Part shown: positions 5,650 to 64,000 of the stretch, piece after piece
How positions within the stretch are numbered: the first letter of the stretch is position 1
How the letters are laid out: each line of letters opens with the position of its first letter
NCBI RefSeq assembly: GCF_963676685.1
Contig: NC_092344.1
Coordinates: 113,460,001 to 113,524,000 of the forward strand
Length of the DNA stretch: 64,000 nucleotides
Reading direction: 5' to 3'
From: Mytilus edulis
Lineage: Eukaryota
Notes under the pieces: model-generated
Told to the model about the DNA's origin: nothing
Database searches by the model: none
What the model saw: only the letters and a program-made list of their open reading frames with translations
Made by a program: the position numbers and the translations under genes

Positions 5650-6770
5650 ACCATCACATTACCTCACATACTACCAGATATCATCACATACTAATAAAGA
5701 TATAAAGATATATACCAGATTTAATCAAATACTATCAGATATCTGTTCAGGCAATCATATATTATCATATACTATTAGATATCATCACATACTATCAGAT
5801 ATCATCACTTACTATCAGATATCATCACATACTATCAAACACCACCATATACTATCAGATATCATTACATACTATCAGATATCATCACATACTCTCAAAC
5901 ACCATCACATACTATCAAACACCATCACATACAATCAGATATCATCATATACTATCAGATATAATCACATACTATCAAACACCATCACATACTATCAAAC
6001 ACCATCACATACTATCAAACAACATAACATACTATCAAATATCATAACATACAATCAGATATCATCACATACTATACAAATATAGCCTTTGTATGAGGTC
6101 GATACAAGGATATATTGATCCGAAAGAAGTATACTGACTGAATACGAAGTCCGAGGTCGATATACTTCTTTGGGTCGATAAATCCTGTATTGACCTCATA
6201 CATGGGTTTTGTAACGACTTGCGTTAACCAACCAAAATCCTAGATATATACTCAGCCGGGGATAACATCATATACTACCAGATATTATAACATACTATCA
6301 GATATCATCACATACTATCATATATCAACACATACTATCAGATATCATCACATACTACAAGATATCATCACATACTAAAAGATATCATCACATACTATCT
6401 TTATCCTCACATACTATCATATATCATCACATACTATCAGATACCCGTTCATGCATTCCTATATCTTAACATACTATCAGATGCTAAAACATACTATCAT
6501 ATAACTTAACATACAATGAGATCATCAGATACTTTCAGATACCATCATATTACATAACATTCTATCATATAATACACTTCCTCGCATACTTTTAGATATC
6601 ATCTAATTGCATCCCATACTATCATATAGCTTCACATTACCACATATTACACTATATTAAATACTATCAGCTTAAATCACATCCAATCATGTTACATCAC
6701 ATAGCATCACATACTATTAGATTACGTCATACATCACATACTATCAATATACATCACACACTATCAGATT
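5650..6770. repeat. ~20-bp minisatellite (ATACTATCAGATATCATCAC) in the 3' UTR of the GPCR, contiguous with the stop codon
   Basis: Dozens of degenerate copies are visible. The array is interrupted at ~6080-6265. Confidence 0.9.
6090..6202. mobile_element. Palindromic MITE-like remnant inserted in the minisatellite
   Basis: Imperfect inverted arms TGTATGAGGTCGATACAAGGATATATTGATCCGAAAGAAGTATA ... TATACTTCTTTGGGTCGATAAATCCTGTATTGACCTCATACA. Confidence 0.6.
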
Positions 6771-7334
6771 CATTTTCTTCGCTTTTATCATCTGGTTTCT
6801 TTTCTTGAATTAACAAAGTTGTAGATTCACCAGATTCCGAAATAACTTTATTCGCTTTGGGGTCTATGTAATAACTATATTTTGGACGAACAATTCCATT
6901 AGATGGTGTCGATGATTGAATAAATACATCTTTACAAGCCCGTCGTTGAATAAGTTCTGGAAAAGGTTCCAAGCTTTCTGTCATAAAGGATCCATTTTGT
7001 AAAATAGGCGAATGAACATCTGCTACTGTAATGGCTATTTTACTAAACGATGACCTTTGACTGAATTGTTCAAGATCGCTATTTAAAAACCTTTCAGTTT
7101 CAGACCCAAAGATACCACTATCAGCAGCACCATTGTCTTGTGGCAAACTTCTGTTAGAACGTCGGTCTTGATTATAAGCAACTAAATTTACCCCAGTCTG
7201 AGAACTCCCTAAAAGGTCTGAAAGCTGTCTTTTGCGTTCATGGGTAAATTTCATACGATTTACTTGATCATAATGCATATTCGACTCATGTCTCTCAGGT
7301 ATGAATTGTTCTGGGAGCTCGGGTTTCATATAAC
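6754..7334 (-). CDS. aGPCR exon 29: intracellular C-terminal tail ending ...ENESDSV*
   Basis: 191-aa ORF. Acceptor ttgtag gives G|GT TAT ATG, in phase with exon 28. Confidence 0.85.
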
Positions 7335-10300
7335 CTACAATTAAGATATATATATATATACAGTAAATTTGTTTTGCAGTAGTTTACTGATGTATCGGTT
7401 AATCGGAAAAATCATGGTAACAAAAAGTAGTTGCGGGAATTATATGTACTCCAAGAGATCGGGAATTATATGTACTCCAAGAGATCGGAAATTATATGTA
7501 CTCCAAGAGATCGAAACCTGGTTCGCTAAACAGTATAAAAGTCTCGTGTAAATAAAAGTGATGTAACTGTAGAATTGTTACTTCTCTTAAATTTAATAAT
7601 TATTATTGGAAGGAAATAACATACTGCTGTCGTTGTAAAGAACACTCCATTTTATTATTTGGACCATAGTAAACCTATCAAGCTATCAAGCATATAGAAG
7701 TTGATAATATTATAAACTAAACTGTATAAGAAATTATTGCATAGCAATATAATAATTCCCACAAAAAGTAACCAAAAGTTAGCGTGCAATAAATTCCAAT
7801 ATTGCACTAGTGCAATAAATCTTTAAAATTAATGACGTTATCAACGACAAAATCTTAGTTTAAACCAATTCTTACTTTTAAATATTATATTGCTATACAA
7901 TAAAAGGGTTATTGCTTGAATATTGGGGAATATTGTCCCTCGTAAAACATATATTGCACTCGCAAGCTCGTGCAATATAAAATTCTACTCTGGACAATAT
8001 TCCCCAATATTCATGCAATAACCCTATATTACTCAAATTATAGGCTACACGGAAGAGCAAAAACGTACAATAGCACATGCGAAGATACTAAAAGTATATC
8101 TTTAATATTGCATGGTTTAATACAAATAAAAAGTACATCTTTTCGAAAAATGGTAAATTTCACGTATTTTCTATTTCTATATGTTATATCGAATTATTAT
8201 TGCTTTTGTCTGACTTATCGAATAATTAATTCTTTTGTCTGACTTATCGAATTATTATTGCTTTTGTCTGACTTATCGAATTATTATTTCTTTTGTCTGA
8301 CCTTTCGAATTATAAATTACCTTTAAATGAGCTGCTGCTTTGGTTACGATTCTGAAAATCAAATAAAAACACTTTTGAATTTAATGTAAATACACTTATA
8401 TTTCTTCAATGCTCGAGTATGTTTCTTGAGTCTGTTATATATACCATTTTATTTTTACCTTCCTCTGTTTATCGAAATTGAAATACAGACCATCCAAAAT
8501 GTTTTTTTCTTATTCGGTATTAGTGTGCGTGGCGTGATCTACATCTAAAGAAGAATGCACACGGCTGACATATTAAATTGCACTCATATTGAGAGTTCGG
8601 TTCGATTTCATGGCTGTTACTTTTGAGATGAAAACTTAATTGCATACATATTTCTAACACATATATTTTTCCATCAATTCGTGACAATTACACCATTTCT
8701 TTTATAAAAATAAGGGTTACCGGAAAAGAAATTTTTTAAGTCATATTCAATATCCCACATTCAATTGATTTTTAACGCTAATATCATGAAAATCTAATAT
8801 TTGAATAAAAATTGTTGTGAAACTGCCTTTTTTTCTCATTTAACCAGACAGTACCTCCCGCCTTTTGTTGTATATGGAATGTAGATCAATATCAAGTATC
8901 AGCCACACACGATACCTACCATTTGTTGCATTGGTGGTTTATTTTTAAACGGTGACAGCCTTCTCCAAAGAATTGTCATTATCTGAAGACAGATAAATAT
9001 ATTCGTTATTCAACTACTTAGTATATATTGCAATATTTTTCTTCTAAATTTTTGCAATAGACTACTTTTTATAAAAAAAAAAACTTTTGACAAGAAATAA
9101 CAAGAAAAAACTGACAAAAACTATGCAAAGAATAACGACCACAGAAACTAGGACACACGCCTCTAATGATATAATACTTCTGGAGCACCTGAGATCACCC
9201 CTAAGTTTTGGTGGGGTTCGTGTTACTAAGTCTTTAGTTTTCTATGTTGTGTCTTGTGTACTATTATTTGTCGGTTTGATTTTTGTATTTTGTGGCCATG
9301 GCGTTGTCAGTTTATTTTCGATATATGAGTTTGACTGCCCCTCTTTTGCAACTAAAAAATATGTGTTGTCTTACCAGTGCGGTGATAATAAAATAATACG
9401 TTATGGTTTAAGGTAGATCATAAGTATATGTTTTTTGAGACAGAATTTTCTTGTAATTTGACAAAATGAAGATTTTCTTATGCTGTTTTCAAAAATATAA
9501 TAAAAAGTATGGGTCACCGTGCTATTTTTCAAGCTATGAGTCATTGAAAATTGCCTAAATTTGGTTAGTTTGTTCATGAAAAAACACATAACAGTGCATA
9601 AAACAAATTCTATGAGATAGAATTTTGAAAAAAATTGTGAGAAGATAGGTTTTATAATATGTTTTAAGAAAATAAAAAGAAAACATGGTGTCTCCGAACT
9701 TGTTTTCTTGCCACAAGTAAAAATAAAAAATTTCCCTATTAGCCCAGTATAAATTTTGTGCTAAAAAAGTTATCTCCCCTTAAATGGCTCATTTGAAAAA
9801 AATGATTTTAAAAACCAAAAAGGTTGATATTTGTTAAGATATTTTGAATAATACAATAAATCAGCAAGTTTTCTTTATATAAATAAACAGTCTAACCATT
9901 AAATTGCAAATCTGTTTCCAAATTTGCTGATTTGGGCAAATAACTAGACCGATTTTGTACTGTGATTGTACAATCCAAGATGGCGGTATACCATGAATCT
10001 ACCTTAAAGGACTCTATGAATCAAGTAACTGGTTACTTATGATTTATAATAAAAACTCACTAATAGTTATACATCAGGGACAAATATATTGACAATGAAC
10101 TGTTTACACCGTTTCATAATTCGAGTAGATATGTACACTAGTTAAATATCGAAACATTTGTTTCATTAATATTAAATAACTTATTAAAGGTAGTAGTACC
10201 GTACCTCCTTATCAATAACGCATCGTGATATGAAAATAACCATCACCTACAAAGAAATTGAAAAAAAATGTTTTAAGAAACATCTCACTTATTTGTTTGA

Positions 10301-40300: not shown

Positions 40301-41292
40301 CATATGCAATCTGTAAATTGAACCAATTGCTAACACAATGGTGGTCTACAAAACGGAATATTGGTTGAAAGAAGTAAGAGCCAAACATTAGGAATAACAC
40401 TATATGTATAGTATGATGAATAAATAAAGACAGGGTTTTGAAAAGGATGTGTATGTCTCCTAGTATACAATTGCATTTAACAATTATATAATATACATTA
40501 CATCTTTTCAGTTATGAATTACAATTACTTGTGAATACCCGATTAAGATTTATGGTTTTTAAAACTTGTCAGATGTGTAACTTGAATATAACATTTATGT
40601 GATTTGTACACGACTTGTTACATGACTTACCTACAGCTGCCATTGTTTTGACACATATTCTTCTCAATCATAGGGTTACAATGTGGACCATACTGACACT
40701 CCTCCCCAGAGAAGTTCGGAAAGCAATGACATTTATATTCGGAGTAGTCCGCACTAGCATAACAGTTACCAAGGTATGAACAATCAAAAGCCGAGCAAGT
40801 CCATTTACTGTCCACTTCATGTTTACTGACCATTTCATAGGTAATGTTAAATCCATAAACATCAATTAAATGGTCCAACACACGAAGGTGAATATTGCCC
40901 ATCTCTTGAACGGCGAATCGTAATACCATGAACGGTTTGTGGGCGACGATTGACCAGATTTCATCTTCACAGTTGACCGTGGCTAGTTTGCGTTCTCCTA
41001 TCCACTCATCTTTGTTAGTATAGTGATCGAATTCATAAACATGGAAAAATCCTTTAAGGTAATACTGTGTCAAATATAAAACAATTTTGAGTTTTGGTGG
41101 AGCTTGTATAACCCATTCACAAAACACGGGTGTCTCGAAAGGTCCAGGATAATTAGGTGACTGTATTACTCCTTGTTTCTGTGTTAACCGACCACCACAT
41201 CGATTATATTGACCACTACACACCGATATCAAAACATATATCATCAATATCAACGTCACTAGCTTAACGATGGTCATGGTACACGATGTCAT
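6754..41292 (-). CDS. Adhesion G protein-coupled receptor (SP-CUB-EGFx3-SEA-like-Igx2-HormR-GAIN/GPS-7TM), 29 coding exons, ~1428 aa
   Basis: The 29 exons listed separately have AG acceptors and GT donors (one GC) with matching phases. They sum to 4287 nt with no internal stop. Diagnostic CUB, EGF, Ig, HormR, GPS and class B2 7TM motifs occur in the expected order. Confidence 0.92.
7905..8026. mobile_element. Palindromic MITE-like hairpin
   Basis: AGGGTTATTGCTTGAATATTGGGGAATATTGTCC ... GGACAATATTCCCCAATATTCATGCAATAACCCT inverted arms. Confidence 0.7.
8185..8315. repeat. ~28-bp tandem repeat (x4-5) abutting the exon 28 donor
   Basis: TTATTGCTTTTGTCTGACTTATCGAATTA-like units. Confidence 0.8.
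8321..8351 (-). CDS. aGPCR exon 28 (NRNQSSSSFKG)
   Basis: ttttcag/gtaatt, 31 nt, phase 0 to 1. Confidence 0.7.
8920..8982 (-). CDS. aGPCR exon 27 (IMTILWRRLSPFKNKPPMQQM; helix 8 region)
   Basis: cttcag/gtaggt, 63 nt, phase 0 to 0. Confidence 0.7.
9412..10003. mobile_element. Non-autonomous DNA transposon with TTAA TSD (Kolobok-like termini)
   Basis: TTAA|GGTAGATCATAAGTATA ... TATACCATGAATCTACC|TTAA imperfect TIRs. Confidence 0.7.
10205..10246 (-). CDS. aGPCR exon 26 (VMVIFISRCVIDKE; end of TM7)
   Basis: Resembles the aGPCR TM7 motif FIFIFHC...KE. ttgtag/gtacgg, phase 0 to 0. Confidence 0.8.
10844..10970 (-). CDS. aGPCR exon 25 (TM6-TM7)
   Basis: VTCLKSISILLLLNVVSYLSTG...YVISYSILVILL. tttcag/gtaagt, phase 2 to 0. 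Confidence 0.8.
12004..12089 (-). CDS. aGPCR exon 24 (TM5-ICL3)
   Basis: AILFMLIFALHSCIRHQDEARYTSKRTF. ttttag/gtgaga, phase 0 to 2. Confidence 0.8.
12662..12728 (-). CDS. aGPCR exon 23 (ECL2-TM5)
   Basis: CWIEGDQWHFYGFIIPIVALDI contains the class B CW..F..P motif. Phase 2 to 0. Confidence 0.9.
13001..13076 (-). CDS. aGPCR exon 22 (TM4)
   Basis: (V)IPVILAIFFGVASKIFPANDNSLL completes the GWxxP motif. Phase 1 to 2. Confidence 0.85.
13873..14023 (-). CDS. aGPCR exon 21 (TM3-ICL2)
   Basis: ALCSVGRIVVYFCFLAAFSCLFAESMHIY...YLLIGW. Phase 0 to 1. Confidence 0.9.
15872..15974 (-). CDS. aGPCR exon 20 (TM2)
   Basis: WLVGDEYPIHFSFMVSILLQSITFLVCLKNVHNT. Phase 2 to 0. Confidence 0.85.
16176..16285 (-). 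CDS. aGPCR exon 19 (TM1)
   Basis: IPKVVTEPNPALPIIIACIINIVVLGIGVFIYILKR. Phase 0 to 2. Confidence 0.88.
16890..17016 (-). CDS. aGPCR exon 18 (GPS motif)
   Basis: GRWTKNQCTV...TVCKCSLPGHFMVV. Phase 2 to 0. Confidence 0.9.
17650..17705 (-). CDS. aGPCR exon 17 (GAIN, CVSW start of GPS)
   Basis: SSTNKYNQTVCVSWEFDQ. Phase 0 to 2. Confidence 0.88.
17946..18057 (-). CDS. aGPCR exon 16 (GAIN)
   Basis: IKFLSPISDVHSIF...IPIKHTTQ. Phase 2 to 0. Confidence 0.8.
18674..18752 (-). CDS. aGPCR exon 15 (GAIN)
   Basis: MEKLQVLSFKNKAIVSMLSAKEQNP. Phase 1 to 2. Confidence 0.75.
19635..19736 (-). CDS. aGPCR exon 14 (GAIN)
   Basis: VKTDLLPVQIDTGNN...EPEYLT. Phase 1 to 1. Confidence 0.78.
20656..20764 (-). CDS. 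aGPCR exon 13 (GAIN)
   Basis: DMKAAPYFLKINQIISRSISSVLYMEPDSKYTSESI. Phase 0 to 1. Confidence 0.78.
21207..21272 (-). CDS. aGPCR exon 12 (GAIN helices); duplicate in-frame acceptor at 21323
   Basis: SLIDLMNVMLFAANQSTWEEKQ. Phase 0 to 0. Confidence 0.82.
22175..22375 (-). CDS. aGPCR exon 11 (GAIN subdomain A, LYSGDV motif)
   Basis: LEMLRLGYQQTT...LYSGDVELAVSILHELL...ITLK. Phase 0 to 0. Confidence 0.88.
23001..23107 (-). CDS. aGPCR exon 10 (HormR, second half)
   Basis: GYATRQC...WAEPNYAKCQS. Phase 1 to 0. Confidence 0.9.
23589..23900. mobile_element. MITE-like element with TGTTCACACG/CGTGTGAACA ends and internal AATTCGAATT repeats
   Basis: Inverted termini and many palindromic AATTCGAATT motifs. 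Confidence 0.65.
28086..28193 (-). CDS. aGPCR exon 9 (HormR, first half)
   Basis: TCGKSYHKQVMWTKTAGNHFDKERCPSETG. Phase 1 to 1. An alternative in-frame acceptor lies at 28187. Confidence 0.88.
28667..29023 (-). CDS. aGPCR exon 8 (end of Ig1 and Ig2)
   Basis: GTFTCEA...EGESMSIICMS...YTW...ANFSCTVENKAG. Phase 1 to 1. Confidence 0.92.
29395..29658 (-). CDS. aGPCR exon 7 (Ig1), followed by a GC-AG intron
   Basis: MTLSCVARGRPSITFKWFKDG...LDR. Donor AG|GCAAGT joins D-R-G to T-F-T-C. Confidence 0.9.
30090..30349 (+). repeat. Dispersed repeat family (GCCAATGAGACAACTCT... type); related copies at ~47787-48080, ~48490-48590 and ~40110-40280
   Basis: Several similar copies occur within the window. 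Confidence 0.65.
33745..33890 (-). CDS. aGPCR exon 6 (SEA-like spacer)
   Basis: QDSEDYIDIRLYIES...LQITSVP. Phase 2 to 1. Confidence 0.8.
34752..34807 (-). CDS. aGPCR exon 5
   Basis: INIMLQQRGVFSVENVTI. Phase 0 to 2. Confidence 0.78.
35209..35294 (-). CDS. aGPCR exon 4
   Basis: RHKYDIRCDLQNSSTLLTSGERNAIQQK. Phase 1 to 0. Confidence 0.78.
35470..36750 (-). repeat. 61-bp tandem array (~21 copies) made of the last 53 nt of exon 3 plus the 5' splice site
   Basis: Unit on the minus strand: CTGTAACCATGGATTTAGACTTAACAGAGATAAAAGAACGTGTGTTCATATTG-GTAAGTAG. An 8-unit (488-bp) higher-order duplication is present. Confidence 0.95.
36697..36813 (-). CDS. aGPCR exon 3 (EGF3)
   Basis: CAVLDCEQTC...SCGCNHGFRLNRDKRTCVHI. 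Phase 1 to 1. Confidence 0.9.
39584..39678 (-). CDS. aGPCR exon 2 (second half of EGF2)
   Basis: YLYGDYVNICQCVPGYLGSMCEQ. Phase 2 to 1. Confidence 0.9.
40631..41292 (-). CDS. aGPCR first coding exon (signal peptide, CUB, EGF1, start of EGF2)
   Basis: Hydrophobic leader, then CGGRLT...IQSPNYPGPF...CEWVI and CHCFPNFSGEEC. Probable acceptor at 41397, with an in-frame stop upstream of the ATG. Confidence 0.93.
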
Positions 41293-41969
41293 GTCGTCCT
41301 GGTCGCTCAGACATTTCTATATAGTGTCATTTTGAATGTTCATGGTTGGATGGGAAGCGATCAGCTGTCGTTAGTTCTTGTTGTCTGTCTAAATATTCTG
41401 TAACAGATGAAACAATAAGATTCATGATATCTAACGTTATCAAGCATATAATCAACTTCATATTTCCGTTTGTGAGGTGCAATACTATTAATAATAAATT
41501 GTTTTGACAATTAGTTAAGTGTTAACATTCACTGTTCATAACAATATTGTTAATTTCCTATAAGTTATAAGCTACATATGCATAAAACACAGAGATCGTA
41601 CATCTACTATTAAAAAAAAAAGAGGATATAACCACATTCACCCGAATTCAGGCATTCTGATTCCAATTCTAACGACTAATTTAAAAATCCATTGCATGTA
41701 TCCTAACATTTAAAACAGAGTAGAAAAAGGCTAATCCTAGTAGAATGAATTGTTTCTCTATACGACCATCTTTGATATGGCAACGTCAGCTGTGAACTTT
41801 TAATTTTTCCAAATGTATTTCAATTACTTAATTAGAAGAAATGTAATGACTATATATATCGAATTTCTTTTCACTATAATGAAGTTTAGTAGCTGTAAAA
41901 TACACAATTTAAAATTGACTGTAAATGTGCCAATAAATATTTTCTGTTTATTTCAATGATTCGATTTAA

Positions 41970-42885
41970 GCAGTAGACATGTGTCTATATACTATGTCAA
42001 CAGACATGTGTCTATGCAATATGTCAACAGACATGTGTCGATACAATATTTCATTAGACATGTGTCTATTTACTATGTCAACATACATGTGTCTAATTAC
42101 TATGTCAACAGTAATGTGTCAATACAGTATGTCAACAGACATGTGTCGATATAATATGTGAACAGACATGTGTCTATATATTTTCTCAACAGACAGGTGT
42201 CTATATACTATTTCAACAGACATGTGCCGATAAAATATTTCAACAGACATGTGTCTATATATTATGTCAACAGACATGTGTCGATACAATATTTCAACAG
42301 ACATGTGTCTATATACTATGTCAACAGACACGTGTCTATGCAATATGTCAATAGACATGTGTCGATACAATATTTCAACAGACATGTGTCTATATATTAT
42401 GTCAACAGACATATGTAGATACAATATTTCAACAGACATGTGTCTATATACTATGTCAACATACATGTGTTTATGCAATATGTCAACAGACATGTGTCTA
42501 TATAATGTCACCAGACAGGTGTCGATACAATATTTCAACAGACATGTGTCTATATACTATGTCAACAGACATGTGTCTTTGGAATATTTTGACAGACATG
42601 TGTTGATATATACTATATACTATGTCAACAGACATGTGTCGATACAATATGTCAACATACATGTGTCTATGCAATATTTGAACAGACATGTGTCTATATA
42701 TACTATATCAACAGACTTGTGTCTATGTAATATGTCAACAGACATGTGTCGATACAATACTTCAACAGACATGTGTCTATATACTATGTCAACAGACATG
42801 TGTCTATGCAATATTTGAACAGCCATGTGTCGATATATATTATGTCAACAGACATATGTGTTTATGCAATGACAAAAGACAGGTT
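41970..42885. repeat. 27-bp minisatellite (ATGTCAACAGACATGTGTCTATATACT), roughly 33 copies
   Basis: Directly visible. The period is divisible by 3, which explains the repetitive ORFs in the track. Confidence 0.93.
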
Positions 42886-52842: not shown

Positions 52843-55213
52843 CAAGGATTTGTATTGTTGAAGACCTTATATTGTTCCTGTTTAGTGTAGGCCGTATGAG
52901 ATAAGTTTTGTAGTTGGATTGCAGCTAAATTTTCTTTCAGTTACTTTGGTTGTTGGTTTGCTGTCTTTAATATTGACATGTTTAGACCTCACATCTCCTG
53001 TATAACATATTTTTAAAGGTCAATTGAAATATTTTAGAGTGACAGTAGTAGTTGTAAAGCAGTGTTATGAAAGACAATAAATAAAAAGACATTTACACAT
53101 TTCACTTTTTTTTAAATATTCATACAACAGTTACATCAAGATCATGTGGAAACAATTTAAATAATTATATTTCATGTATGAACAGAACAAAACTAAATGT
53201 CACAGTGTCAACAGTTTAAAGATTTCTCCTTTAAGGCTTGTCTTAGACTGGATGAGGGTTGAGATTTTGCTTTCTTGGTCAGTTTATTGCGTTCTATACG
53301 AGTAACAGCAAAGCCACGGATGGTTAAAAACAAATGAATGATGTCTTCAGTTATAGCTGACACAATATCTGCAGTTTCACCTTGCATAAGAATGTCACAA
53401 TAATGTTTTACCATGAACCCTTCCATCATAGCTTCTTTTAAAGGATCAATAAGAAGCGAACTAGCACTATATGAAGGTTCAACTGTTTTGCGAATAATTG
53501 TCTCTAATTCACGGATTAATAAGAACAGGGAATCTGATGGTTTCTGAAGGCCACCACGGTCTTGTGTCTTATACCACTTGTCATATTGTTTCACAAAGTT
53601 AACACCTGAAGAATTGTCTGTAAATTTATTTATGACGGACAACTTCTTAGTAGAGTACCTGGTGTATCTCTTCTGTAGAGCACGAATGGTGTAACCAGCA
53701 ATATAATACAGAATGCTTTGGTCATTTTCTGTTAACTTTTCCTGATTTGATGTTGATTTCTGAACAGCTGTCATTGTTTGAACTTTAAAAATTTCACCAA
53801 CAATATCCTCATGTACCATCTGTAGGAATAAGTTGGTATGGTTCAATGAGTGAGATGGACAATGCGAGTGAAAAGTGTTTGTCAATTCTGGCTTTACTCT
53901 ACTTATGTGTAAACGGCGAAACATTTGCTCTTTGTCACATGAGGAAGATATGTTGCTTGTAGTTTCAACAAATATCGGCTGAAAATATTTCAACAAAATG
54001 TCTTGCACTACTGCTGAATTGCTCACAAATTTGCAAATGTCTGTTATGCTGTCATTGATGGTAAATGGATCATTAGCAATGTTGGACAAACTGGACTGCA
54101 AAGCTGTAGGGAATATTTCAGCAAATGAACTTTCATTTAAGGCGTCACGGACTGTGCTAGGTAGTTTACTATCTGCATGTGTGCGATGGTCTGTTGCTCT
54201 CAAATTCTGTCCATGTTGTTTCTGGACATGACCACGGAAGCCTGAAATTGTTTTCAGAGTCTTTTTGCAAACAGGACAAGTGTATGAAGGTTTAATACAT
54301 GTATCTGGTACAGGTTCAGACTTTTTCTTTTTGGCAATGTAACATTCTTCATCACTGTCACTGGGTTCTGGATCATACTCAGTATATTCACCTAACAAAA
54401 GATCAAGGTCAATATCTTGGTCCCAGGATAAAAAATCTGACATGGTTGTAACATTGAATAATAATTTGTACTGAAAGTTGATTACTAAATATTCCATTTT
54501 ATAATATATCTAAGCTTGTTCTGATACTGAGATCAAAGACTTCATTTAATTAATCATCTTGATTTTTTTTAAATTAAATGTTATGTTTTGAGATTAAAGG
54601 TTGTAATTTATTTAATTATATATATTCTTCACTAATTAATCTAATCACCACAAAAGTATATTTCAATTACAAACAGTTCCTTGCATAATTAATAAAAAAA
54701 CAAAGAACTATTAAAAAAAACAGAAAGTCAAACAACAAGCTGTGACAATCAAATAATTATTTCATCTTCCTCTTTGAGTAAATGATTATTATGAAGATAA
54801 TAAATGACTACCAAAACTGCGGTCACATGAGGGGGAAAACTCAATATTTTTTATCTTTTTCCGGGATGAATATCAAATTTACAAACTTAATTTAATTTTA
54901 ATACGAAAATTTCACAAATAAACTTTATAAACGCCAACTTTTCCTTTTGGTCTATTTAGGTAATTATCACTTTGTAATTTAAGAGAAATAAGAATTGTTT
55001 TATCGGTAAGTCTACACAAAACTAATATCGTAAAAAGATCGTAAGATCGTAGCTTACCATGTGTATTTTCATAACGTTGTTAACCAAGCGATAAAACCGG
55101 ATATTTACAATACAAGCGAGTATCATGGTATAAGTGGCGAGTTTACGACTTCTCACGATACGCGAGAACTAATGAGATACCGCGAGATTCCAATCCTTCT
55201 ATACAAATCCTTG
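52843..55213 (-). mobile_element. 2.37-kb P-superfamily-like DNA transposon derivative
   Basis: Perfect 13-bp TIRs CAAGGATTTGTAT (52843-52855 and 55201-55213). 7-bp direct repeat ATCAACA at 52836-52842 and 55214-55220. Confidence 0.8.
53208..54470 (-). CDS. C2H2 zinc-finger protein with a P-element/THAP9 transposase C-terminal-like region (~410-420 aa)
   Basis: Long intact ORF with CPVC...HVQKQH and LYYIAGY...W...DRGGLQKPS motifs. Probable upstream exon ending ATG|GTAAGC at 55058-55060, spliced to a tttcag acceptor at 54470. An alternative start is the internal ATG (MSDFLSW). Confidence 0.8.
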   Translation of the reverse strand, partial: YKLLFNVTTMSDFLSWDQDIDLDLLLGEYTEYDPEPSDSDEECYIAKKKKSEPVPDTCIKPSYTCPVCKKTLKTISGFRGHVQKQHGQNLRATDHRTHADSKLPSTVRDALNESSFAEIFPTALQSSLSNIANDPFTINDSITDICKFVSNSAVVQDILLKYFQPIFVETTSNISSSCDKEQMFRRLHISRVKPELTNTFHSHCPSHSLNHTNLFLQMVHEDIVGEIFKVQTMTAVQKSTSNQEKLTENDQSILYYIAGYTIRALQKRYTRYSTKKLSVINKFTDNSSGVNFVKQYDKWYKTQDRGGLQKPSDSLFLLIRELETIIRKTVEPSYSASSLLIDPLKEAMMEGFMVKHYCDILMQGETADIVSAITEDIIHLFLTIRGFAVTRIERNKLTKKAKSQPSSSLRQALKEKSLNC

Positions 55214-56414
55214 ATCAACATGATAAACCATGATTTTCGAATTCAGTAATAATTGTTCAGAGAAAACTTAACGATGTTACCCTATAATATTATATACGCT
55301 TCAGATTTAAAGACTTATAAATAATGCCGAAATATATCCAAGTTCAAACAATCAGCTCACTAATTTCAAAACTATCAATCCCATCATTAATATTCATGTA
55401 CAGTAAATGCTATATGAATTATTATAAAGTAATTTCAAGCTTATAATACAGAAACGATTTTCTGTGAAAAATTGACAACCACTGACTATCATATCTATAG
55501 GCCTTTAATAGACCTGTAATTATGTTAATGGTGTCCAGCTGAATGCTGACATTTGAAATAATAACGGACACATAGACAACTGCCTTCTGTGTTAAAATAT
55601 CTAATTTGTATCTCACTTTTGACCTTTAAGATGCTTATGGAGAATAACTGATTTAATTTCAAATTCAATAATTTATAAAGTATACTAGGTATCCAGCAAT
55701 GCTGGTAATGTTTTTTTTTAACTAATAATCGTATGAAAGCTAAGATAAATGTCAGTTTTATATTTATTCCAGTTCAAACTGACATCAATGCGGATAGCGA
55801 CACAAACATTGAGATATATTACATGAGCATGATCTTAAACATTACTTTTGGTTACATTACTTCTGCCCGTGACAATCATAAGAAAGACTCCGTGAATGGG
55901 GCATTAGTCTTTAAAAGTACGATTCAGGGCAACACCATAGAACAGTTCCTTTAAGTCAAACTAATTTGACGAAAATTTACTTGAATCGAAACAATGCTTA
56001 ACAAAAATTATGATTAATATTCAAAATTTGCAGGTTTCATCTCTTTTAAAAAAAAATCTTCTGACGAGAAAAAGCAAGCAACAATTCCGCTACAAGACCA
56101 AGTTACGACCTTACCTTTATTTATTTCAGCCCCTGTCTGTGTACGGAGGCATTTGTCTTACCCATTATCACGTGTATCAGGAATGATCATGAATCATTTA
56201 TAGAAAAAAAATTGGAATTTTTATGGTTTGAGTTGCGGCCCCTGACTAAGGTAACGGGTCTGTGAGTAGCTCTGCAAAAAATAGACTTTTAGTATCAATT
56301 CTCGGTGAATATCGAATGCAGATTATTTAAAATCGTAAAGAATACAAGTAATGATAAACATTCACTCGTAAAATTGCATTTGCAATTTAAAACTACCAAG
56401 ATATTTCAGTGAAC

Positions 56415-57698
56415 ATGACCAAATCAAACACGCAAGAAGAATCCAATATGGCGTCGTATGCCGAAGCATTTAAAAGAGGTCCTAAATCAGAAACAACTGA
56501 CTCTCTGTCCTCTGTTAAACCAGTGTTTGTTGAAGAATCAGACGTCTTTAGTCATATCCCCAAAGAAGCCACTAGAGGCTTATTTTTAACCATATCTGAA
56601 ATGTACAAGGCTGTAGGTGCAGTCGTGCCAGACAGATCAGTTATGGGCCTTCAGAGAATTAAAGGTCTGTGGAGGATATATCTCGACACATTAAAAGGAA
56701 AAGAATTTCTCCTTTCAGAAGGTCTTGAAATTCGAGGCAAATCTATCTCTATATACTCTATCAATCCTAGAGTTCGCATACAAGAAAATTCAACAGATGT
56801 GAAAATTCGCATTAAAGATGTACCACTCTCGGCTGACGATGGACAGATTTTGAGAGCCTTAGAGGGGTACAATTGTGTAATTTTGAAGCACTTAAGAGAA
56901 AGGTTACGTTACAATGATATGATAACAAACTGTCAAACTGGTGACAGAATAGTTTATTGTGAAGGTCCATTGATCTCTGCTATTCCAAAGTCCATTCCAA
57001 TTGGGAAATATAGAGCAACGGTTATATACAGAGGTCAACAAAATGACAACATTAAATGCAACAAGTGCATGGAGCTCGGACACACAACCAAAAATTGTGA
57101 AAATGATTGGAAGTGTAGAATCTGTGGTGAATCAGGCCACAGGCAAAATGAATGCACCAGTGAAATGCCTTCTGAACAGGAGCAAGAAGGTGCCACAAGC
57201 ACACATCATGAAAATCATTATGACCCGAGTGATGTAAACACACAACAACCAACAAACAACAATGAAAACATTGAAGCTATGCAACCAACTGAACATGAAG
57301 CTCATGCAGAAAATGATTCTGCCTCAGATACAAACAATCACGATGATTTTATAAGATCACAATCAATCTTCTTCGATGACCAGATCTCTAGTCCTATATG
57401 TGATCAACAAAATCAACCTCTGTCAGCAAGACCGAAAATAAAACCAGGTAGAAGGGAAACGAACAAATCCTCACATACATCCAGTGAGGCTACCAGCAGA
57501 AATTCCCGTGGTCAATCACAAATCACCAGTTTTATTAACGGTCCAAACCAGTCTACACGTAGAAACCAACATCAAGATACTCCGGTCAAAACTTCAAACA
57601 GAAGTGGTTTAGAGAAGTCTCCAGTGACGCCCACAGAGAAACTACATGATGGTGCCAGTAACAACAAAAGTAAAAAATCGAAAACAACGAAAACCTAG
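56415..57698 (+). CDS. ORF1p: RRM-like region, two CCHC zinc knuckles, disordered basic tail
   Basis: CNKCMELGHTTKNC and CRICGESGHRQNEC, with an N-terminal SYAEA motif. First ATG at 56415, second at 56448. Confidence 0.92.
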   Translation: MTKSNTQEESNMASYAEAFKRGPKSETTDSLSSVKPVFVEESDVFSHIPKEATRGLFLTISEMYKAVGAVVPDRSVMGLQRIKGLWRIYLDTLKGKEFLLSEGLEIRGKSISIYSINPRVRIQENSTDVKIRIKDVPLSADDGQILRALEGYNCVILKHLRERLRYNDMITNCQTGDRIVYCEGPLISAIPKSIPIGKYRATVIYRGQQNDNIKCNKCMELGHTTKNCENDWKCRICGESGHRQNECTSEMPSEQEQEGATSTHHENHYDPSDVNTQQPTNNNENIEAMQPTEHEAHAENDSASDTNNHDDFIRSQSIFFDDQISSPICDQQNQPLSARPKIKPGRRETNKSSHTSSEATSRNSRGQSQITSFINGPNQSTRRNQHQDTPVKTSNRSGLEKSPVTPTEKLHDGASNNKSKKSKTTKT

Positions 57699-57798
57699 AG
57701 TGATCATTATATTGAACATTGAAATTAACACTTAATCTATTTCAATCTAGTTGATATTATATGTAATTTTTATCATATAAAAAAAAATATATAAAAAA

Positions 57799-58782
57799 AT
57801 GTCACTGTATATAACACTTTTCACTTTTTCTTTTCTCATTATTGGTATATATTTAGAATGTAGTCCGCTGTATTCTAATTTTCTGATTTTGGCAAGTGAT
57901 ACCTATCACAGATTAAAAAGTAAAGAAACTGTAAAATACAAAACATTTAATTGGTATCAAACTACTTATTTTTTACAATCATTATTATCAAACACACTGT
58001 TAAATGTTTCCAGTAATGCTACATTGGAAAAAATCCAATTTTTATTAATCTGTTCATGTTTCTTCATTCAAATTCAGTCAGAGAGGTCTTCTTATCCTAC
58101 AAATAAAAATAAATATTTTTTACCATGTATGTATATAAAAATTGTTCTTTTTTTTAAAATTGATTTGCATATGTATTTCAATATGAAACACATAAATAAT
58201 TGTACTTGTATTTGTTTAACAAACATTGAGTGTGCTAAAATTAAGAGGCACATGTCAATGTCTGTTTTTGAAGTCACATGGATGACCCAAATAATGACCC
58301 ATGGGGTATATGTAAAAGAAAACAATAGATTGTATTTATTTACGAATGTAACTTGTTGTATGTTTTTAATAGAAACAAATTGTGTTAACACTTTACTTGT
58401 GAATACATGTAAAAACATTCAAATGAAATACGCTTTTCTTCCTTTTTGCAAAAGGATTGTAAAGACAAATACAGGTAAAAATTTTACCCTATTTATAAAC
58501 ATTATTTACAAAGATAACAATCATGACAATCAGAACATTGTCAAAAGTAAAAATTGTATAAACTTTAAAATAAACAATTTAAGTTTCAAATGTAGAAGAA
58601 AAAACAGTAGCTTATGCTTATTCATTAGACAAATCGTAGATAAATGTCCTAGAACAGACAAAAGTAATAAAAATAAAACAACTGAAAAGATGTCTATTTA
58701 TAGTCTCGTGCTCTGTGAAGGTCAACTTCAGTGTGACCCAATTGTATCACTAAACGGGAATTTACCTATGTTAATTTTTTAA
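57799..58782 (+). CDS. Unassigned 327-aa ORF between ORF1 and ORF2 (hydrophobic N-terminus, Cys/Asn-rich)
   Basis: ATG-initiated, sense-strand, stop-free for 327 codons in very AT-rich DNA. It fills nearly the whole spacer. No recognisable domain. Confidence 0.55.
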   Translation: MSLYITLFTFSFLIIGIYLECSPLYSNFLILASDTYHRLKSKETVKYKTFNWYQTTYFLQSLLSNTLLNVSSNATLEKIQFLLICSCFFIQIQSERSSYPTNKNKYFLPCMYIKIVLFFKIDLHMYFNMKHINNCTCICLTNIECAKIKRHMSMSVFEVTWMTQIMTHGVYVKENNRLYLFTNVTCCMFLIETNCVNTLLVNTCKNIQMKYAFLPFCKRIVKTNTGKNFTLFINIIYKDNNHDNQNIVKSKNCINFKINNLSFKCRRKNSSLCLFIRQIVDKCPRTDKSNKNKTTEKMSIYSLVLCEGQLQCDPIVSLNGNLPMLIF

Positions 58783-58834
58783 AATACACATAACACAGTA
58801 AGAGACTACAAATAAAATTAACTACTCACCAACC

Positions 58835-61800
58835 ATGGTATTTAACAAACATCTTCATATCTGTACAGTTAATTGTAAAGGTCTGCAACAATCTGATAAA
58901 AGAAAAAGATTAATTGAATGGTCTAAATCCCAAAAATGTGACATTCTTCTAATGCAAGAAACACACTTTACAGATAGTTTAATAAATAATTTAAATACTG
59001 AATTTGAAGGTAAACTTTTACTGAGTAATGGTTCTAGCAATTCAAGAGGTATTGCCATATGGCTGAATAAAAATTTAAACTTTAAAATAATTGATGACTT
59101 TAAAGATAAAGAAGGAAGACTTTTACTTGTTAATATTGAAATAAATGATACTATAATAACAATAGTTAATATTTATGCACCAAACAATCCTAAAAGCAGA
59201 AATACTTTTTTCAAAACTGTCCATACATTAATAGAAGAAAAAAGTTTAGGTCAACTTATTCTAGGAGGAGATCATAATGAAATTTTATCACAAATTGATT
59301 CAAAAAGTAAAACTAAACAACAAAAAAATAGGAAAAAAGTTCACAATTTAAATAAACTTATAAAGTCATTAAAACTCAATGATGTATGGAGAACAAAAAA
59401 TCCAAATAAAGTTCAATTTACATGGAGCAGAAAAGATAGGTCAGAGTCAACAAGAATAGATTATTTTTTAATAACTCCAGAAGTATTCAAAAACTGTGTT
59501 TCATGTGACATTAGACCAATAGTATTACAATACACAGACCACAACTGTGTTTCTTTAAAAATAAATCTTAACAGAGGCCAAAAAGGAAAAGGATACTGGA
59601 AATTAAACAGCAGTGTACTTCAAAATGAAGACTTTACTGAAATAATTAGGAAATTAATTAAAAAATTTAAAAACAAAGCTAAAACAAGAACAGATCTTGA
59701 CATACTGTGGGACAATTTCAAAATAGAAGTTAGAGACCAGACAATAAGCTATTGCAAAACAAAAGCTAAGAATAAAAAAAACCTTATCAGCAAATTGGAA
59801 AAAAATTTAACACAATTAAATGATATTATTGATACATGTAACAATAAAAACAATAATAATATATTAAAAGAAATAGATAATATAGAAAATGAAATAGGAA
59901 AACTCTATAACGAAAAAATAAAAGGGAATCAAATAAGAGCAAGGGTAAAATGGGTTGAAGAAGGAGAAAAAAATTCTGCATATTTTCTAGGGATGGAAAA
60001 ATCAAGACAGAGTAGAAAAACAATAACCCAATTATATGATGATAAAGGTCAAATTACAAGGGATCAAGACAAAATATTACAATTAGAAGCAAATTATTAT
60101 AAAAAATTATATTCTACAAAAAACCCTGAAATAGAAGCAACTAAAAAGTATTTAGATTCTCTCAAGGAATATAAAAAATTAAATGATTGTGAAAGTAATT
60201 CTTGCGAAGGGGAAATAACTGTTGATGAATGTACTGATGCAATTTTTAAAATGAAACTTAATAAAGCGCCTGGGCTTGACGGACTTAATGTGGAATTTTA
60301 TAGAACATTCTGGGATGAACTTAAATCTTTTATAGTCTCCACATTCAATTACTGCTATGAAAAAAGAGAACTATCTAACACTCAGAAAGTTGGCTTAATA
60401 TCTCTAATTTATAAAAAGAATGACCCCTTTTCACTTGACAATTATAGACCTATTACTCTTTTAAACTATGATGCTAAATTACTTGCTTATGCCTTAGCAC
60501 AAAGATTAAAACCCCTGCTACCAAAGATAATAAATACAGATCAAAAAGGATATGTCAAAAATAGATATATTGGTTTCAACATTAGACAAATACAAGATGT
60601 CATCGACTATTCTGAAACTTTCAAAATTGATGGGGCAATTTTATTTCTGGATTTTACAAAAGCATTCGACTCATTAGAATGGGACTTCATGTTTGAGACT
60701 TTAAAAAAATTTGGATTTAAAGATAATTTTATAAGGTGGGTTCAGACAATGTACTCTGATATTAAAGGATGCATTATTAATAATGGATGGGTTTCCTCTC
60801 GCTTTAGGGCATCTCGCGGGATCCGACAAGGATGTCCGTTATCATCATTACTATTTGTTCTAGCTGTAGAAGTTATGGCAATAAAGATAAGGGAAAATAA
60901 AAACTTAAAAGGCATAGAAATAAAATTAGATGGTAAGAGTAACACCCTGAAAATCTGCCAATTAGCTGACGACACTACTCTATTTCTTCAATCAAAAAAA
61001 GATGTATCTCTAGCAATTAATCTAATAGAAACATTTGGTACTCTCTCCGGTTTGAAATTGAATAAAACAAAAACTGAAGGAATATGGCTTGGTCAATTAA
61101 AACACAGTCGGGAAAAATTTGAAAATATAAATTGGTGTACTGCACCAATCAAAAGCCTCGGAATTTACTTTGGTTACAATAAACAAGAATGTCAAAAACT
61201 TAACTTTGAAAAACAACTGTTAAAAAGTAAAAAAATAATATCTGATTGGAATAGAAGAAACCTTACTATCATAGGAAAAATAGTTGTCATCAAATCTTTA
61301 GTTTTACCAAACCTAACATATGTTGCATCAAACACTATTATTCCTAAGGAAATGTTGCAAGACTTTAAAACTATAATATACAATTTTATTTGGAAAGGCA
61401 AAAGAGATAGAATAAAAAGATCAACACTTTCAAACAATTTTCTAGAAGGTGGACTTAAAATGACGGACATTGATGCTTATATAAAATCATTACATATCAA
61501 CTGGATTCTTAAATTAAGTGAAAATAAAAATGACAACTGGACAATAATTCCCAAATTTTACTTCAACAAATTAGGAAAAAATCTTCTTGTATTTAAAATG
61601 AATTTAAAGAATATAAACGACATTGATAAAAGTAAGTTACAGTATTTACCGGAATTCTATAAACAACTACTTAAAGATTGGATAAGTGTAAAGGGAGGTA
61701 ATACAAAATATCCTAAAAATTTTCTTGAAATTAGAAAACAAGTTTTGTGGGGAAATGATAATATCCGGTTTAATGGAAAATGTTTAAACTTTGATGATTG

Positions 61801-62665
61801 GATAAAAAGTGACATTATCAATATAAATGATGTAATTGATGAACAAGGCAATATCTCTGAAACAACCATTTTAAAGAAACTAAAATATAAGCAAAATTGG
61901 ATAAGGCAAATATATATGTTAAAAAAAGCAATACCAATTGATTGGAAAACAGATCTTTGCACTGAAGATTCATTCAAAACTAAAGTTAAATTTATAAACG
62001 ACTTAAAAATTATGCACAGGACAATTACTCCCTTGATGAGTACAAAAGAACTGTATAAAATATTCACACTGAAAAATAGTTGTGATAAACCAAATGGTTT
62101 TCTTATGTGGGAAAAAATATTTGAGAAAAACTTGAATTCTAAATTGAAAAATACTTTTGCTTTCATTTTTCAATATCTAACTGATAATAGATTGAAAATA
62201 TTTAGATGGAAACTTATTCACTACATACTGCCAAGTAATGAACTCTTAAAAAAGTGGAAAATAACTGAAGACAACTTATGTAAGCATTGTAAAAAAAAGG
62301 AAGACTATGAACATTTTTTTATCAATTGCTGTTATAATAATGATTTTCTAAAAATAATAATGACATTAATGAAATCCCTAGGTATTGAAAAAGATATTAT
62401 AAACCTTGAAAATTTGGTAACAGGGTACAAAATTGATGATTTAGCATACTTTGATATTAATTACATATTGACTATAATATCCTTCTCAATATACAAATCA
62501 CATTTTGTCTCAGAAAAGAAGACAAAAAAAATAAACATTTTAAAAATTTTCCAGAAAGAAATTTCAGAAATTATTGAAATAAACAAATTTAATAACAAAA
62601 AAACTAATCAGATAATTCTAAAAACAAATAGATTCATTGCAAAGATTCAATTGAATCAGGACTAA
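58835..62665 (+). CDS. ORF2p: APE endonuclease, reverse transcriptase and C-terminal CCHC
   Basis: NCKGL, LMQETH, NIYAPN, GGDHN, RIDY and TDH (endonuclease). KAPGLDG, NYRPITLLN, LDFTKAFD, GIRQGCPLS and LADD (RT). CKHC...EHFFINC at the C-terminus. Start context ACCATGG. Confidence 0.97.
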   Translation: MVFNKHLHICTVNCKGLQQSDKRKRLIEWSKSQKCDILLMQETHFTDSLINNLNTEFEGKLLLSNGSSNSRGIAIWLNKNLNFKIIDDFKDKEGRLLLVNIEINDTIITIVNIYAPNNPKSRNTFFKTVHTLIEEKSLGQLILGGDHNEILSQIDSKSKTKQQKNRKKVHNLNKLIKSLKLNDVWRTKNPNKVQFTWSRKDRSESTRIDYFLITPEVFKNCVSCDIRPIVLQYTDHNCVSLKINLNRGQKGKGYWKLNSSVLQNEDFTEIIRKLIKKFKNKAKTRTDLDILWDNFKIEVRDQTISYCKTKAKNKKNLISKLEKNLTQLNDIIDTCNNKNNNNILKEIDNIENEIGKLYNEKIKGNQIRARVKWVEEGEKNSAYFLGMEKSRQSRKTITQLYDDKGQITRDQDKILQLEANYYKKLYSTKNPEIEATKKYLDSLKEYKKLNDCESNSCEGEITVDECTDAIFKMKLNKAPGLDGLNVEFYRTFWDELKSFIVSTFNYCYEKRELSNTQKVGLISLIYKKNDPFSLDNYRPITLLNYDAKLLAYALAQRLKPLLPKIINTDQKGYVKNRYIGFNIRQIQDVIDYSETFKIDGAILFLDFTKAFDSLEWDFMFETLKKFGFKDNFIRWVQTMYSDIKGCIINNGWVSSRFRASRGIRQGCPLSSLLFVLAVEVMAIKIRENKNLKGIEIKLDGKSNTLKICQLADDTTLFLQSKKDVSLAINLIETFGTLSGLKLNKTKTEGIWLGQLKHSREKFENINWCTAPIKSLGIYFGYNKQECQKLNFEKQLLKSKKIISDWNRRNLTIIGKIVVIKSLVLPNLTYVASNTIIPKEMLQDFKTIIYNFIWKGKRDRIKRSTLSNNFLEGGLKMTDIDAYIKSLHINWILKLSENKNDNWTIIPKFYFNKLGKNLLVFKMNLKNINDIDKSKLQYLPEFYKQLLKDWISVKGGNTKYPKNFLEIRKQVLWGNDNIRFNGKCLNFDDWIKSDIININDVIDEQGNISETTILKKLKYKQNWIRQIYMLKKAIPIDWKTDLCTEDSFKTKVKFINDLKIMHRTITPLMSTKELYKIFTLKNSCDKPNGFLMWEKIFEKNLNSKLKNTFAFIFQYLTDNRLKIFRWKLIHYILPSNELLKKWKITEDNLCKHCKKKEDYEHFFINCCYNNDFLKIIMTLMKSLGIEKDIINLENLVTGYKIDDLAYFDINYILTIISFSIYKSHFVSEKKTKKINILKIFQKEISEIIEINKFNNKKTNQIILKTNRFIAKIQLNQD

Positions 62666-64000
62666 TCTTTTTGCGAAAAACAAAACATTGTTTGTACACA
62701 AGCCAAATATGGTAATATTTATGATCAAGTTCAACCATGCATGTTCAATGTTTGTAAGCATGTTCAGCCATGCATGAGTCACCACATGTAAATTATACAA
62801 CATTTTTTTTTAAATTTTAAAATGTGTATTTACAATGATTAAAAAAAGTTATAGTATAAATGTATCCGTTCGTTTATTAATATATGTGGAAAAGTAATGT
62901 ATCATTTCGGATGTCGAGTGTTTCAACTTGTTACACTTAAATTACCTATTTGTGAATTACACACATACATTTCGACAAAAACATCAGTAGATAACTTAAG
63001 AAAACTTAAATAGTAAACTCACCATATATAATCGTTAAATCCAGTGGATAATTTTTATATAATTTAGACACACATCCTAACTATACCCGATAACGCACAT
63101 GCGAAAAACAACACATACTGTGCCCAATACTAATGGAAACACGGATCATACCGATAACGGAGTTGATTCCGGAAAAAATAAATACTATGAAAAAGAGAAA
63201 CAAAATGTAATGTATGTGTATAATCACATTAATTTATAGTATATATTTTGTGAAAATTTTATGTTATGAATACTAATATTATGAATAAATAATACCTTGC
63301 CAAATAGTGCTTCCCTTAACTATTTGGTAAGCTAACATGAGGGATACTAAGTTAAAGCTGTAAACTTAGTAATTTGTTACAGCAAGATTGCAATAAAGAT
63401 ATTGTTACGTTAAAAAAAAAAAAAAAAGAATTTTTATGGTCAAGTTCTTATATAAAGCACTTTAATGTGCAAATCGAGATAAATACATGTATAGACATAT
63501 TGAACAGCAAATATTTTTGAAACTTCATTGTGTTAACAGGTTAATGTAAACAATTCTTGCATCTTAAAATTAGTTCACAACGAGTGATATGTTCACAACT
63601 TTGCATAACATAGAGGCGTAGGCATCATCCGTATTTTCTATAATGGATAGTGGCATTTTCACAACTTGGTGTGGAACAGGTGTATGCCATCACCCGTGTT
63701 TCCTTTAAAATCCAATGTAGGGTGGTATTTAATTAAAATTCGGTGATACATGATGACCTTAAAGTCTTGGTTAATAAATATTAACTGCTTTTAATTATGG
63801 CGTGCAAAACTGCGATGTTACATATATGGAAATAGATATATGGCACATATTCTGCCTGTTACAATTTGGTGCGTGTTTAAAATCAGTTTACTACGAAATA
63901 GACAAAGCTGTGTAAAGCAACTAGTTATATTTACCTTAAGAGGTATCTCTCTCTAAATTAAACAAGTACGCAATTTTCATAATAAAAGATTGAGAATGTA

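Follow-up and report, generated by a model that had tools for sequence, protein, structure and literature searches.

Towards the end of the 64,000-nt stretch of DNA analysed here (the window) lies a retrotransposon that spans approximately 56228-63427, is bounded by 13-bp target-site duplications (TSDs) and carries three ORFs on the same (+) strand, each in a different frame. The middle one, termed ORFX, occupies the spacer between ORF1 and ORF2. The element consists of the following parts:

56215..56227, + strand: 5' TSD GAATTTTTATGGT (13 bp); sister copies have their own TSDs of 13-16 bp
56228..56414, + strand: 5'UTR of about 187 nt; alignments of sister copies start at 56227-56230
56415..57698, + strand: ORF1, 427 aa, with CCHC zinc knuckles (Pfam PF00098); dN/dS 0.12-0.15 against the L035-type subfamily
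57699..57798, + strand: A-rich gap of 100 nt from the ORF1 stop to the ORFX ATG, putative first reinitiation site; 19-155 nt in other families
57799..58782, + strand: ORFX, 327 aa in the window and 339-341 aa in sister copies; frame conserved, sequence near neutral
57805..57855, + strand: hydrophobic, T-rich N-terminal segment of ORFX (residues 3-19); selection at the protein level suggestive only
58783..58834, + strand: gap of 52 nt (34 nt in sister copies) from ORFX to the ORF2 ATG, putative second reinitiation site; an antisense splice donor also lies inside
58835..62665, + strand: ORF2, 1276 aa, with AP endonuclease (PF03372), reverse transcriptase (PF00078) and zf-RVT (PF13966) domains
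62666..63411, + strand: 3'UTR, with AATAAA at 63392-63397
63412..63440, + strand: poly(A) tail (63412-63427) followed by the 3' TSD (63428-63440), again GAATTTTTATGGT

The coordinates and counts assigned to this element in a first-pass annotation (ORF positions, gaps of 100 and 52 nt, frames, TSD, poly(A), cysteines and sequons) all proved correct. The spacer, described there as about 1.14 kb long with 70-75% AT, measures 1136 nt and 74.6% AT. ORFX of the window has 19 Cys, eight sequons and, by hydropathy, the hydrophobic signal- or TM-like N-terminus that had been noticed (KD19 1.97). Compared with sister copies it contains one extra T near 58775, a single-base difference that is also found in a public contig, and it therefore ends six codons early. 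Between the window copy and the L035 subfamily the 3'UTR (62666-63411) differs by 4%, as compared with 10% for ORFX and 13% for the C-terminal part of ORF1; this low divergence of the 3'UTR would point to either constraint or recombination.

Four further features of the window lie outside the element. An intact 429-aa ORF on the minus strand (53208-54497) has a weak C2H2 zinc finger and a very weak match to the C-terminus of P-element transposases (E 0.003-0.05), and possibly derives from a DNA transposon. An open stretch at 40627-41316 (minus strand), with a signal-like start and a partial CUB domain (E 3e-9), is likely an exon of a host gene. Positions 42119-42818 are tandem-repeat-like and open on both strands (145 and 194 codons), and a 209-codon open stretch at 6754-7383 (minus strand) has no Pfam match.

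On sequence grounds the element is shown to belong to the L1 clade of non-LTR retrotransposons. The best solved-structure match of its ORF2 is human L1 ORF2p (E 5e-101; 342 bits, versus 82 bits for R2), and the hallmarks of the clade are present, namely a poly(A) tail, a variable TSD and an ORF2 combining AP endonuclease, reverse transcriptase (RT) and C-terminal zinc finger. The usual layout of L1 and Tx1 elements comprises two sense ORFs, from which the three sense ORFs found here depart. Many Tx1 families insert into a specific repeated target, and no such target was evident in the 3' flanks of 12 copies, which showed a loose A-rich or GAATT-like preference only. The C/H pattern of the ORF1 zinc knuckles is invariant across 16 families, and a CCHC-type ORF1 has been linked to Tx1 in the accessible text of a previous report (PMC5203782). 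Of the initial designation 'Tx1-like', L1-clade membership and the CCHC ORF1 were borne out and a specific repeated target was not; the Tx1 grouping itself is putative. No named Tx1 reference was among the 120 matches listed for the RT comparison, and our ORF2 tree takes in only families found here. ORF1 is 99% identical to annotated proteins of Mytilus edulis and M. galloprovincialis and has relatives in M. coruscus and Pinctada, which makes a Mytilus mussel the likely host. Many ORF1 proteins of the clade are annotated as host genes in public Mytilus proteomes ('CNBP', CCHC-domain protein; P0002-P0121).

The openness of ORFX had been judged very unlikely to arise by chance, and this judgement was confirmed. 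The longest open stretch in the spacer comprises 333 codons, compared with at most 136 in 5000 base shuffles and 149-183 in Markov simulations of orders 1-3 (3000 each); the 3'UTR, which is of similar composition (750 nt), has a longest open stretch of 52. A chance or copy-specific ORF is ruled out by these simulations together with the open frame in sister copies. A search of the genome assembly with the spacer yielded 34 matches, and 20 stretches were fetched. In five copies (L035, L036, L037, L039 and L040) all three ORFs are open, with an ORFX of 339-341 aa that stops 34 nt upstream of the ORF2 ATG and an ORF2 of 1232-1276 aa. A family that is about 68% identical has a 342-aa ORFX in L046 and a 359-aa version in an independent assembly.

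The survey was extended with ORF1 as query (148 genome matches of 38-100% identity, of which 100 were fetched with preference for uninterrupted ORF1 matches). ORF2 lay in range at 91 of these 100 loci. Spacers of undamaged elements measure 0.6-1.8 kb and have 72-77% AT, and the single locus among the 91 with a spacer shorter than 600 nt, L162, has an internal deletion reaching into ORF2. When spacer DNA was clustered, 26 of 29 clusters contained at least one intact, ATG-started ORF of 187-549 aa that fills the spacer, 'intact' including a junction within ±60 nt of the ORF2 ATG; one of the 26 has a split ORFX of which the second part alone reaches ORF2. The other three clusters comprise a copy of the window family with an insertion and an intact 339-aa ORFX, frameshifted copies and a decayed one. 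Among 84 loci with spacers of 0.5-2 kb, ORFX spans the spacer in 22 of 31 with both ORF1 and ORF2 intact, in 19 of 34 with a broken ORF2, in 2 of 17 with both broken and in both loci in which only ORF1 is broken. Three of the nine undamaged copies without a spanning ORFX belong to a stop-restart family described below, and several others are explained by single-base changes in homopolymer runs. L109 and L115 were considered as a lineage spreading with a broken ORFX on account of a shared A-run frameshift, and were rejected as the two are not mutually closest.

L031 and L033 (C10, at about 4.75 and 4.78 Mb) belong to the window family, are nearly identical and lie 30 kb apart. Each is broken near window position 58970 by some 2.5 kb with another 510-aa ORF, which is a nested insertion that was duplicated later.

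The layout extends to metagenomic sequences: a contig with 37% ORF1 identity (L189) has ORFs of 417, 313 and 1268 aa in the same arrangement, and 13 of the 17 metagenome loci stop short of ORF2. In three metagenome contigs from more distant relatives (L192, L193 and L194) ORFs begin at or just after the ORF1 stop, and a series of shorter ORFs leads on to ORF2, which may represent either relay chains or decay. A query with a distant ORF1 returned mostly the same families and no outgroup with a short spacer. The ORFX families are old because their ORF2s are more than one substitution per site apart.

In an entire clade of L1-type retrotransposons, the spacer between ORF1 and ORF2 is occupied by a third sense frame. 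The frame stays open in other copies and families, as had been proposed for verification, and the stops or frameshifts across the spacer that were to speak against it do not characterize the sister copies, which keep the frame. A frameshifted N-terminal extension of ORF2 is likewise out, as ORF2 has a conserved ATG of its own and an in-frame stop at 58799. Our literature search, made mostly at the level of titles and abstracts, returned no description of a sense middle ORF in L1 or Tx1 elements; third-ORF annotations in Repbase are possible. The ORFX layout is a real, clade-wide structural variant of L1-type elements.

As judged from substitution and indel patterns, selection is shown to act on the frame of ORFX and hardly on its protein. 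Between the window copy and the L035 subfamily dN/dS is 0.12-0.15 for ORF1 and 0.13-0.14 for ORF2, as against 0.54-0.66 for ORFX, in which 22, 32 and 36 changes fall on the three codon positions. In unsaturated pairs ω of ORF1 and ORF2 is 0.06-0.21. For ORFX, a codon model allowing transition bias gave values of 0.6-1.0 for single pairs and 0.87 for eight pooled pairs, which does not differ from 1 (p 0.11); shifted frames gave 1.01. In the dN/dS check that had been called for, the frame was kept and ω was not significantly below 1. Weak constraint on the protein is suggested because ω is below 1 in six of seven pairs and ORFX changes more slowly than synonymous sites of ORF2 in most pairs. By contrast, codons one step from a stop never face a stop in the ORFX frame (0/2103), whereas they do so at about 5% in the shifted frames (91/2022 and 98/1962), and 70 of 78 indels in ORFX are multiples of three, compared with 12 of 37 in 3'UTRs (two saturated pairs and one redundant pair excluded). 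Since the pairs were chosen as intact, the stop and indel counts are partly circular and describe open lineages, and the family census is for this reason the non-circular support for selection on the frame. Indels of 6 nt of the ATACATGT type are common in ORFX DNA and by nature neutral to the frame.

Young copies commonly differ from one another by insertions of the same 6-nt ATACATGT type. In the window the palindrome TACATGTA is found 13 times, where base composition predicts about 2.5, and 62 kb of ORFX DNA contain it 44 times. Together, these observations suggest a genome-wide insertion process.

The amino-acid composition of ORFX equals that of its shifted frames, in agreement with the early remark that it looks like translated AT-rich DNA. 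ORFX length varies almost threefold among families, the ORFX proteins of distant families do not align, and no similarity is left between those of L097 and L098, though their ORF2s are only about 0.2 substitutions per site apart. Apparent conservation of cysteines and amino-acid identity (z-scores of about 3) was discarded, as the null model ignored rate clustering and the signal vanished against shifted-frame controls.

These data bear on the idea that ORFX is an accessory membrane or secreted protein, env-like or resembling FAST/sORF2, that serves cell-to-cell or horizontal spread. The hydrophobic N-terminus, often followed by basic residues, and an ω slightly below 1 would fit such a function, and apparent neutrality could then reflect diversifying selection. 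However, neither the cysteines (4.2% versus 4.0% in shifted frames; TGY codons retained at 0.82 versus 0.83-0.84) nor the sequons (91 versus 102 expected) stand out, none of 18 ORFX proteins has a Pfam match, and a profile search of 1.84 billion proteins retrieved two proteins only, both from sister families. Moreover, none of 29 N-termini has an MG start, one family has spread with a stop at codon 54, and the predicted structure has a pLDDT of 28, which is too low for a fold search and, given the shallow alignment, weak evidence. ESM Atlas contained no usable ORFX match, which is uninformative either way, and hydropathy revealed no consistent C-terminal hydrophobic peak. We therefore consider an accessory protein, including the env-analogous glycoprotein of the first-pass annotation, very improbable.

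The geometry of the junctions points in another direction. The ORFX ATG lies 19-155 nt after the ORF1 stop, mostly behind an A-rich run, and in about half of the families one or more other ATGs precede it. At the downstream end the ORFX stop falls within a range of -38 to +54 nt relative to the ORF2 ATG. The two overlap in 35 of 48 copies, and in 17 of these 35 the overlap is at -4 (ATGA) or -8 (ATGnnTRA). In the L119 family all six copies have an in-frame TAA at codon 54, and 30 nt later an in-frame ATG continues toward ORF2. This shared pair indicates that the family spread without a full-length ORFX protein and with an unbroken stop-start chain.

We propose, with somewhat better than even confidence, that ORFX is a translated bridge which relays ribosomes from ORF1 to ORF2 by double termination-reinitiation. 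Ribosomes terminating on ORF1 would restart at the ORFX ATG, read through 0.6-1.8 kb of AT-rich spacer as ORFX, stop on or beside the ORF2 ATG and restart there. ORF2 output would depend on translation of ORFX, and the ORFX polypeptide would be mostly a by-product. This model is the most economical one because it accounts for selection confined to the frame, free length, stop-start overlaps and the tolerated stop-restart variant. Of the two roles initially offered for ORFX, a frame kept open to carry ribosomes is consistent with the evidence (selected frame, near-neutral amino acids, a stop that appears coupled to the ORF2 ATG), in contrast to the glycoprotein. Termination-reinitiation has been reported for ORF2 of SART1 and L1 (PMC5972666), and a long spacer was found to inhibit L1, with activity lowered further by AUG removal (PMC4072516), according to the accessible portions of these papers. 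No TGGGA (UGGGA) core of a calicivirus-type TURBS was present within 110 nt upstream of any ORFX stop examined, Rfam gave 0 matches, and no conserved RNA structure was found around either start (folding z-scores averaging -0.8 to +0.1).

Selection on the frame alone is explained equally well if ORFX is kept open for RNA surveillance or dosage, with translation shielding the long RNA from decay or setting the ORF1p:ORF2p ratio, and ORF2 is started internally (IRES-like) or from another RNA. The IRESs predicted in long vertebrate L1 spacers (PMC5381506, in the portion available) would be in line with this. Yet the ATGA and ATGnnTRA overlaps are not predicted by it, internal initiation found no counterpart in Rfam or in conserved structure before the ORF2 ATG, and none of six runs guessed to be RNA contained a sense-strand splice joint, although rare forms drop from contigs. 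On balance we regard this explanation as quite unlikely.

The ribosome relay does not explain why the spacer persists, since a pure relay would be better deleted. Two candidates for its retention, both compatible with the relay, are the hydrophobic N-terminal peptide and a conserved spliced antisense RNA.

The first candidate adds to the relay a peptide that acts as a tow-rope: the N-terminal hydrophobic segment, as the only functional part of the ORFX protein, would engage SRP as a nascent chain and thereby draw the element RNA, while under translation, to the ER or nuclear envelope, and the long neutral remainder would give docking time before ORF2p is made in cis. A precedent is the SRP-dependent localization of Ty1 RNA (PMC3945221, as given in its accessible text). 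The N-terminal window exceeds the median hydrophobicity of its own ORF in 23 of 25 families. With a KD13 of 2.36 in the ORF frame, the segment also outscores the +1 (2.07, p 0.008) and +2 frames (1.72, p 5e-5). It begins at residue 1-11 in most families and is followed by a positive net charge in 17 of 25 (at least +3 in 8 of the 25), whereas the window copy has -1. Changes accumulate in the N-terminus about half as fast as in the remainder of ORFX, a CD-x-I-x-D(Y/C)I-x-S-like motif recurs in several distant families, the stop-restart (L119) family retains a 53-aa N-terminal peptide, and spacers do not fall below about 600 nt. Nevertheless, the families are not independent, two of the 25 miss the early segment, and T-rich DNA raises hydrophobicity there in all three frames; relative to the own-frame median, the excess is not significant against the +2 frame (p 0.18). 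The low ω of codons 1-25 (0.41, p 0.023) came from one of five windows tested and was not replicated in seven new pairs (0.73, p 0.37; pooled 0.65, p 0.12). Alternatively, the T-richness could mark an antisense poly(A) signal: across 24 families, the first 60 nt of ORFX contain 11 copies of TTTATT, versus 1-5 in later bins. A functional role of the ORFX N-terminus is possible in view of these patterns, and the specific scenario of RNA towing we put forward tentatively and regard as unlikely.

With regard to the second candidate, public contigs from runs that are guessed, not recorded, to be RNA, and from which strand and level cannot be read, show a twice-spliced, non-coding antisense transcript that comes from the 3'UTR and covers the starts of ORF2 and ORFX. 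Its parts are as follows:

63023..63411, - strand: antisense exon 1, in the 3'UTR; donor at 63022, transcription start unmapped; joint 58892/63023 in X5
58893..63022, - strand: antisense intron 1, 4130 nt, GTGAGT...TTTATCAG; skip identical in X5 and X9
58830..58892, - strand: antisense exon 2, 63 nt, over the ORF2 start codon; splice sites kept in one clade
58097..58829, - strand: antisense intron 2, 733 nt, GTGAGT...TTTGTAG, inside ORFX; joint in X2, X3, X7 and X9
57780..58096, - strand: antisense exon 3, 5' third of ORFX; end unmapped, contigs stopping near 57777-57864

Intron 2 is skipped in X2, X3, X7, X9 and, with variant letters, X1, i.e. in five of six RNA-guessed runs from different studies, and intron 1 in X5 and X9, two of the three RNA-guessed runs compared over that part. 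Both introns read GTGAGT...AG on the minus strand. Neither joint is present in X15, a run of unspecified kind with even coverage, and the joined form was absent from all 197 fetched genomic loci. A coding antisense RNA was dismissed, as the longest ATG-started ORF in the spliced product has 33 aa. No contig spans all three ORFs, and a tricistronic sense RNA is therefore a prediction. A strong minus-strand donor (G/GTRAGT) occurs in 9 of 18 3'UTRs, eight of the nine at 354-467 nt from the poly(A). The plus strand has no such donor, and shuffling 16 of the 3'UTRs gave an expectation of 0.64. Both donor and acceptor around the ORF2 start are present in the window family, L044-46, L141, L084, L090, L097 and L098, of which those included in the ORF2 tree form one clade with 100/100 support. 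The transcript may be driven by the element's own promoter or by host read-through, and by analogy a repressive or small-RNA role may be considered. HeT-A and TART produce spliced antisense RNAs from the 3'UTR that have no long ORF, according to the available text (PMC2615633, PMC1636488).

The spacer might thus be kept for the antisense RNA, the open sense frame being a repair that lets ORF2 be translated across it, which is compatible with the relay and would answer why the spacer is not deleted. Intron 2 and the last exon are located in ORFX, families about 68% identical share the acceptor, and the strand bias of the 3'UTR donors agrees with such a role. However, a single clade has the exon that overlies the ORF2 start whereas ORFX is found in all, exon 3 is not conserved beyond its first 135 nt (29/163 differences), and splicing was seen only in the window's family and close relatives. 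We give this explanation of the spacer very little credence.

Taken together, these elements might be tricistronic LINEs in which the long frame is a cis-acting device that conveys ribosomes, tows the RNA to the ER or nuclear envelope by its N-terminus and is subject to an antisense off-switch at both restart sites. As a whole this combination is speculative and unlikely. If it were true, ORF2p would be made at a membrane and the element's own spliced antisense RNA, by pairing with the restart sites, would switch the relay off.

Many L1 elements have long spacers, and the way in which ORF2 is translated across them awaits explanation; predicted IRESs have been favoured, with reinitiation over long spacers called inefficient, in the accessible text of PMC5381506. 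The clade described here offers a testable answer, i.e. that the spacer itself is translated. It also illustrates, as a clear natural example, how a frame can be selected to stay open for hundreds of codons in about 26 families while its protein is under little selection, and the stop-restart variant provides a natural internal control. A candidate self-regulatory layer is added by the conserved spliced antisense RNA that overlies the ORF2 start. More generally, an ORF in an AT-rich repeat may be long, Cys-rich and TM-looking without encoding an envelope.

The element shares with human L1 and bivalve L1-Tx1 elements an ORF2 of AP endonuclease, RT and zinc finger (1276 aa here), a CCHC ORF1, TSDs of 13-16 bp and a poly(A) tail. 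The additional ORFs of L1 known from the accessible text of PMC5203782 (ORF0, reverse ORFs) are antisense, whereas the third ORF reported here is sense and fills the spacer. Like retrotransposon Env and the sORF2/FAST proteins of LTR retrotransposons without env, ORFX is an extra ORF with a hydrophobic stretch that is often followed by basic residues. By contrast, sORF2 as described in the available part of PMC11952523 has about 70 aa, of which some 30 form the ectodomain, and frequently carries an MG myristoylation motif, while ORFX is 3-8 times longer (187-549 aa), nearly neutral, and has almost no ectodomain and no MG (MGxxxS/T) start. The antisense transcript resembles those of Drosophila HeT-A and TART in that it is spliced, arises from the 3'UTR and lacks a long ORF (PMC2615633, PMC1636488). 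As far as the accessible text goes, however, HeT-A and TART are telomeric, belong to another clade and have mostly small introns, whereas in the present transcript almost the whole of ORF2 is lost with a single intron and the exons lie over both putative reinitiation sites. With human L1 and silkworm SART1 (UAAUG) the elements have in common an upstream stop on or near the ORF2 start (PMC5972666, in its accessible portion). They differ by two successive restarts via a dedicated, near-neutral ORF of 200-550 codons and, from termination-reinitiation systems, by the lack of a detectable TURBS core or conserved downstream structure. The long intergenic regions of fish, frog, lizard, megabat and afrotherian L1 elements are treated as non-coding, with predicted IRESs, in the text available on them; here, spacers of 0.6-1.8 kb are one maintained reading frame.
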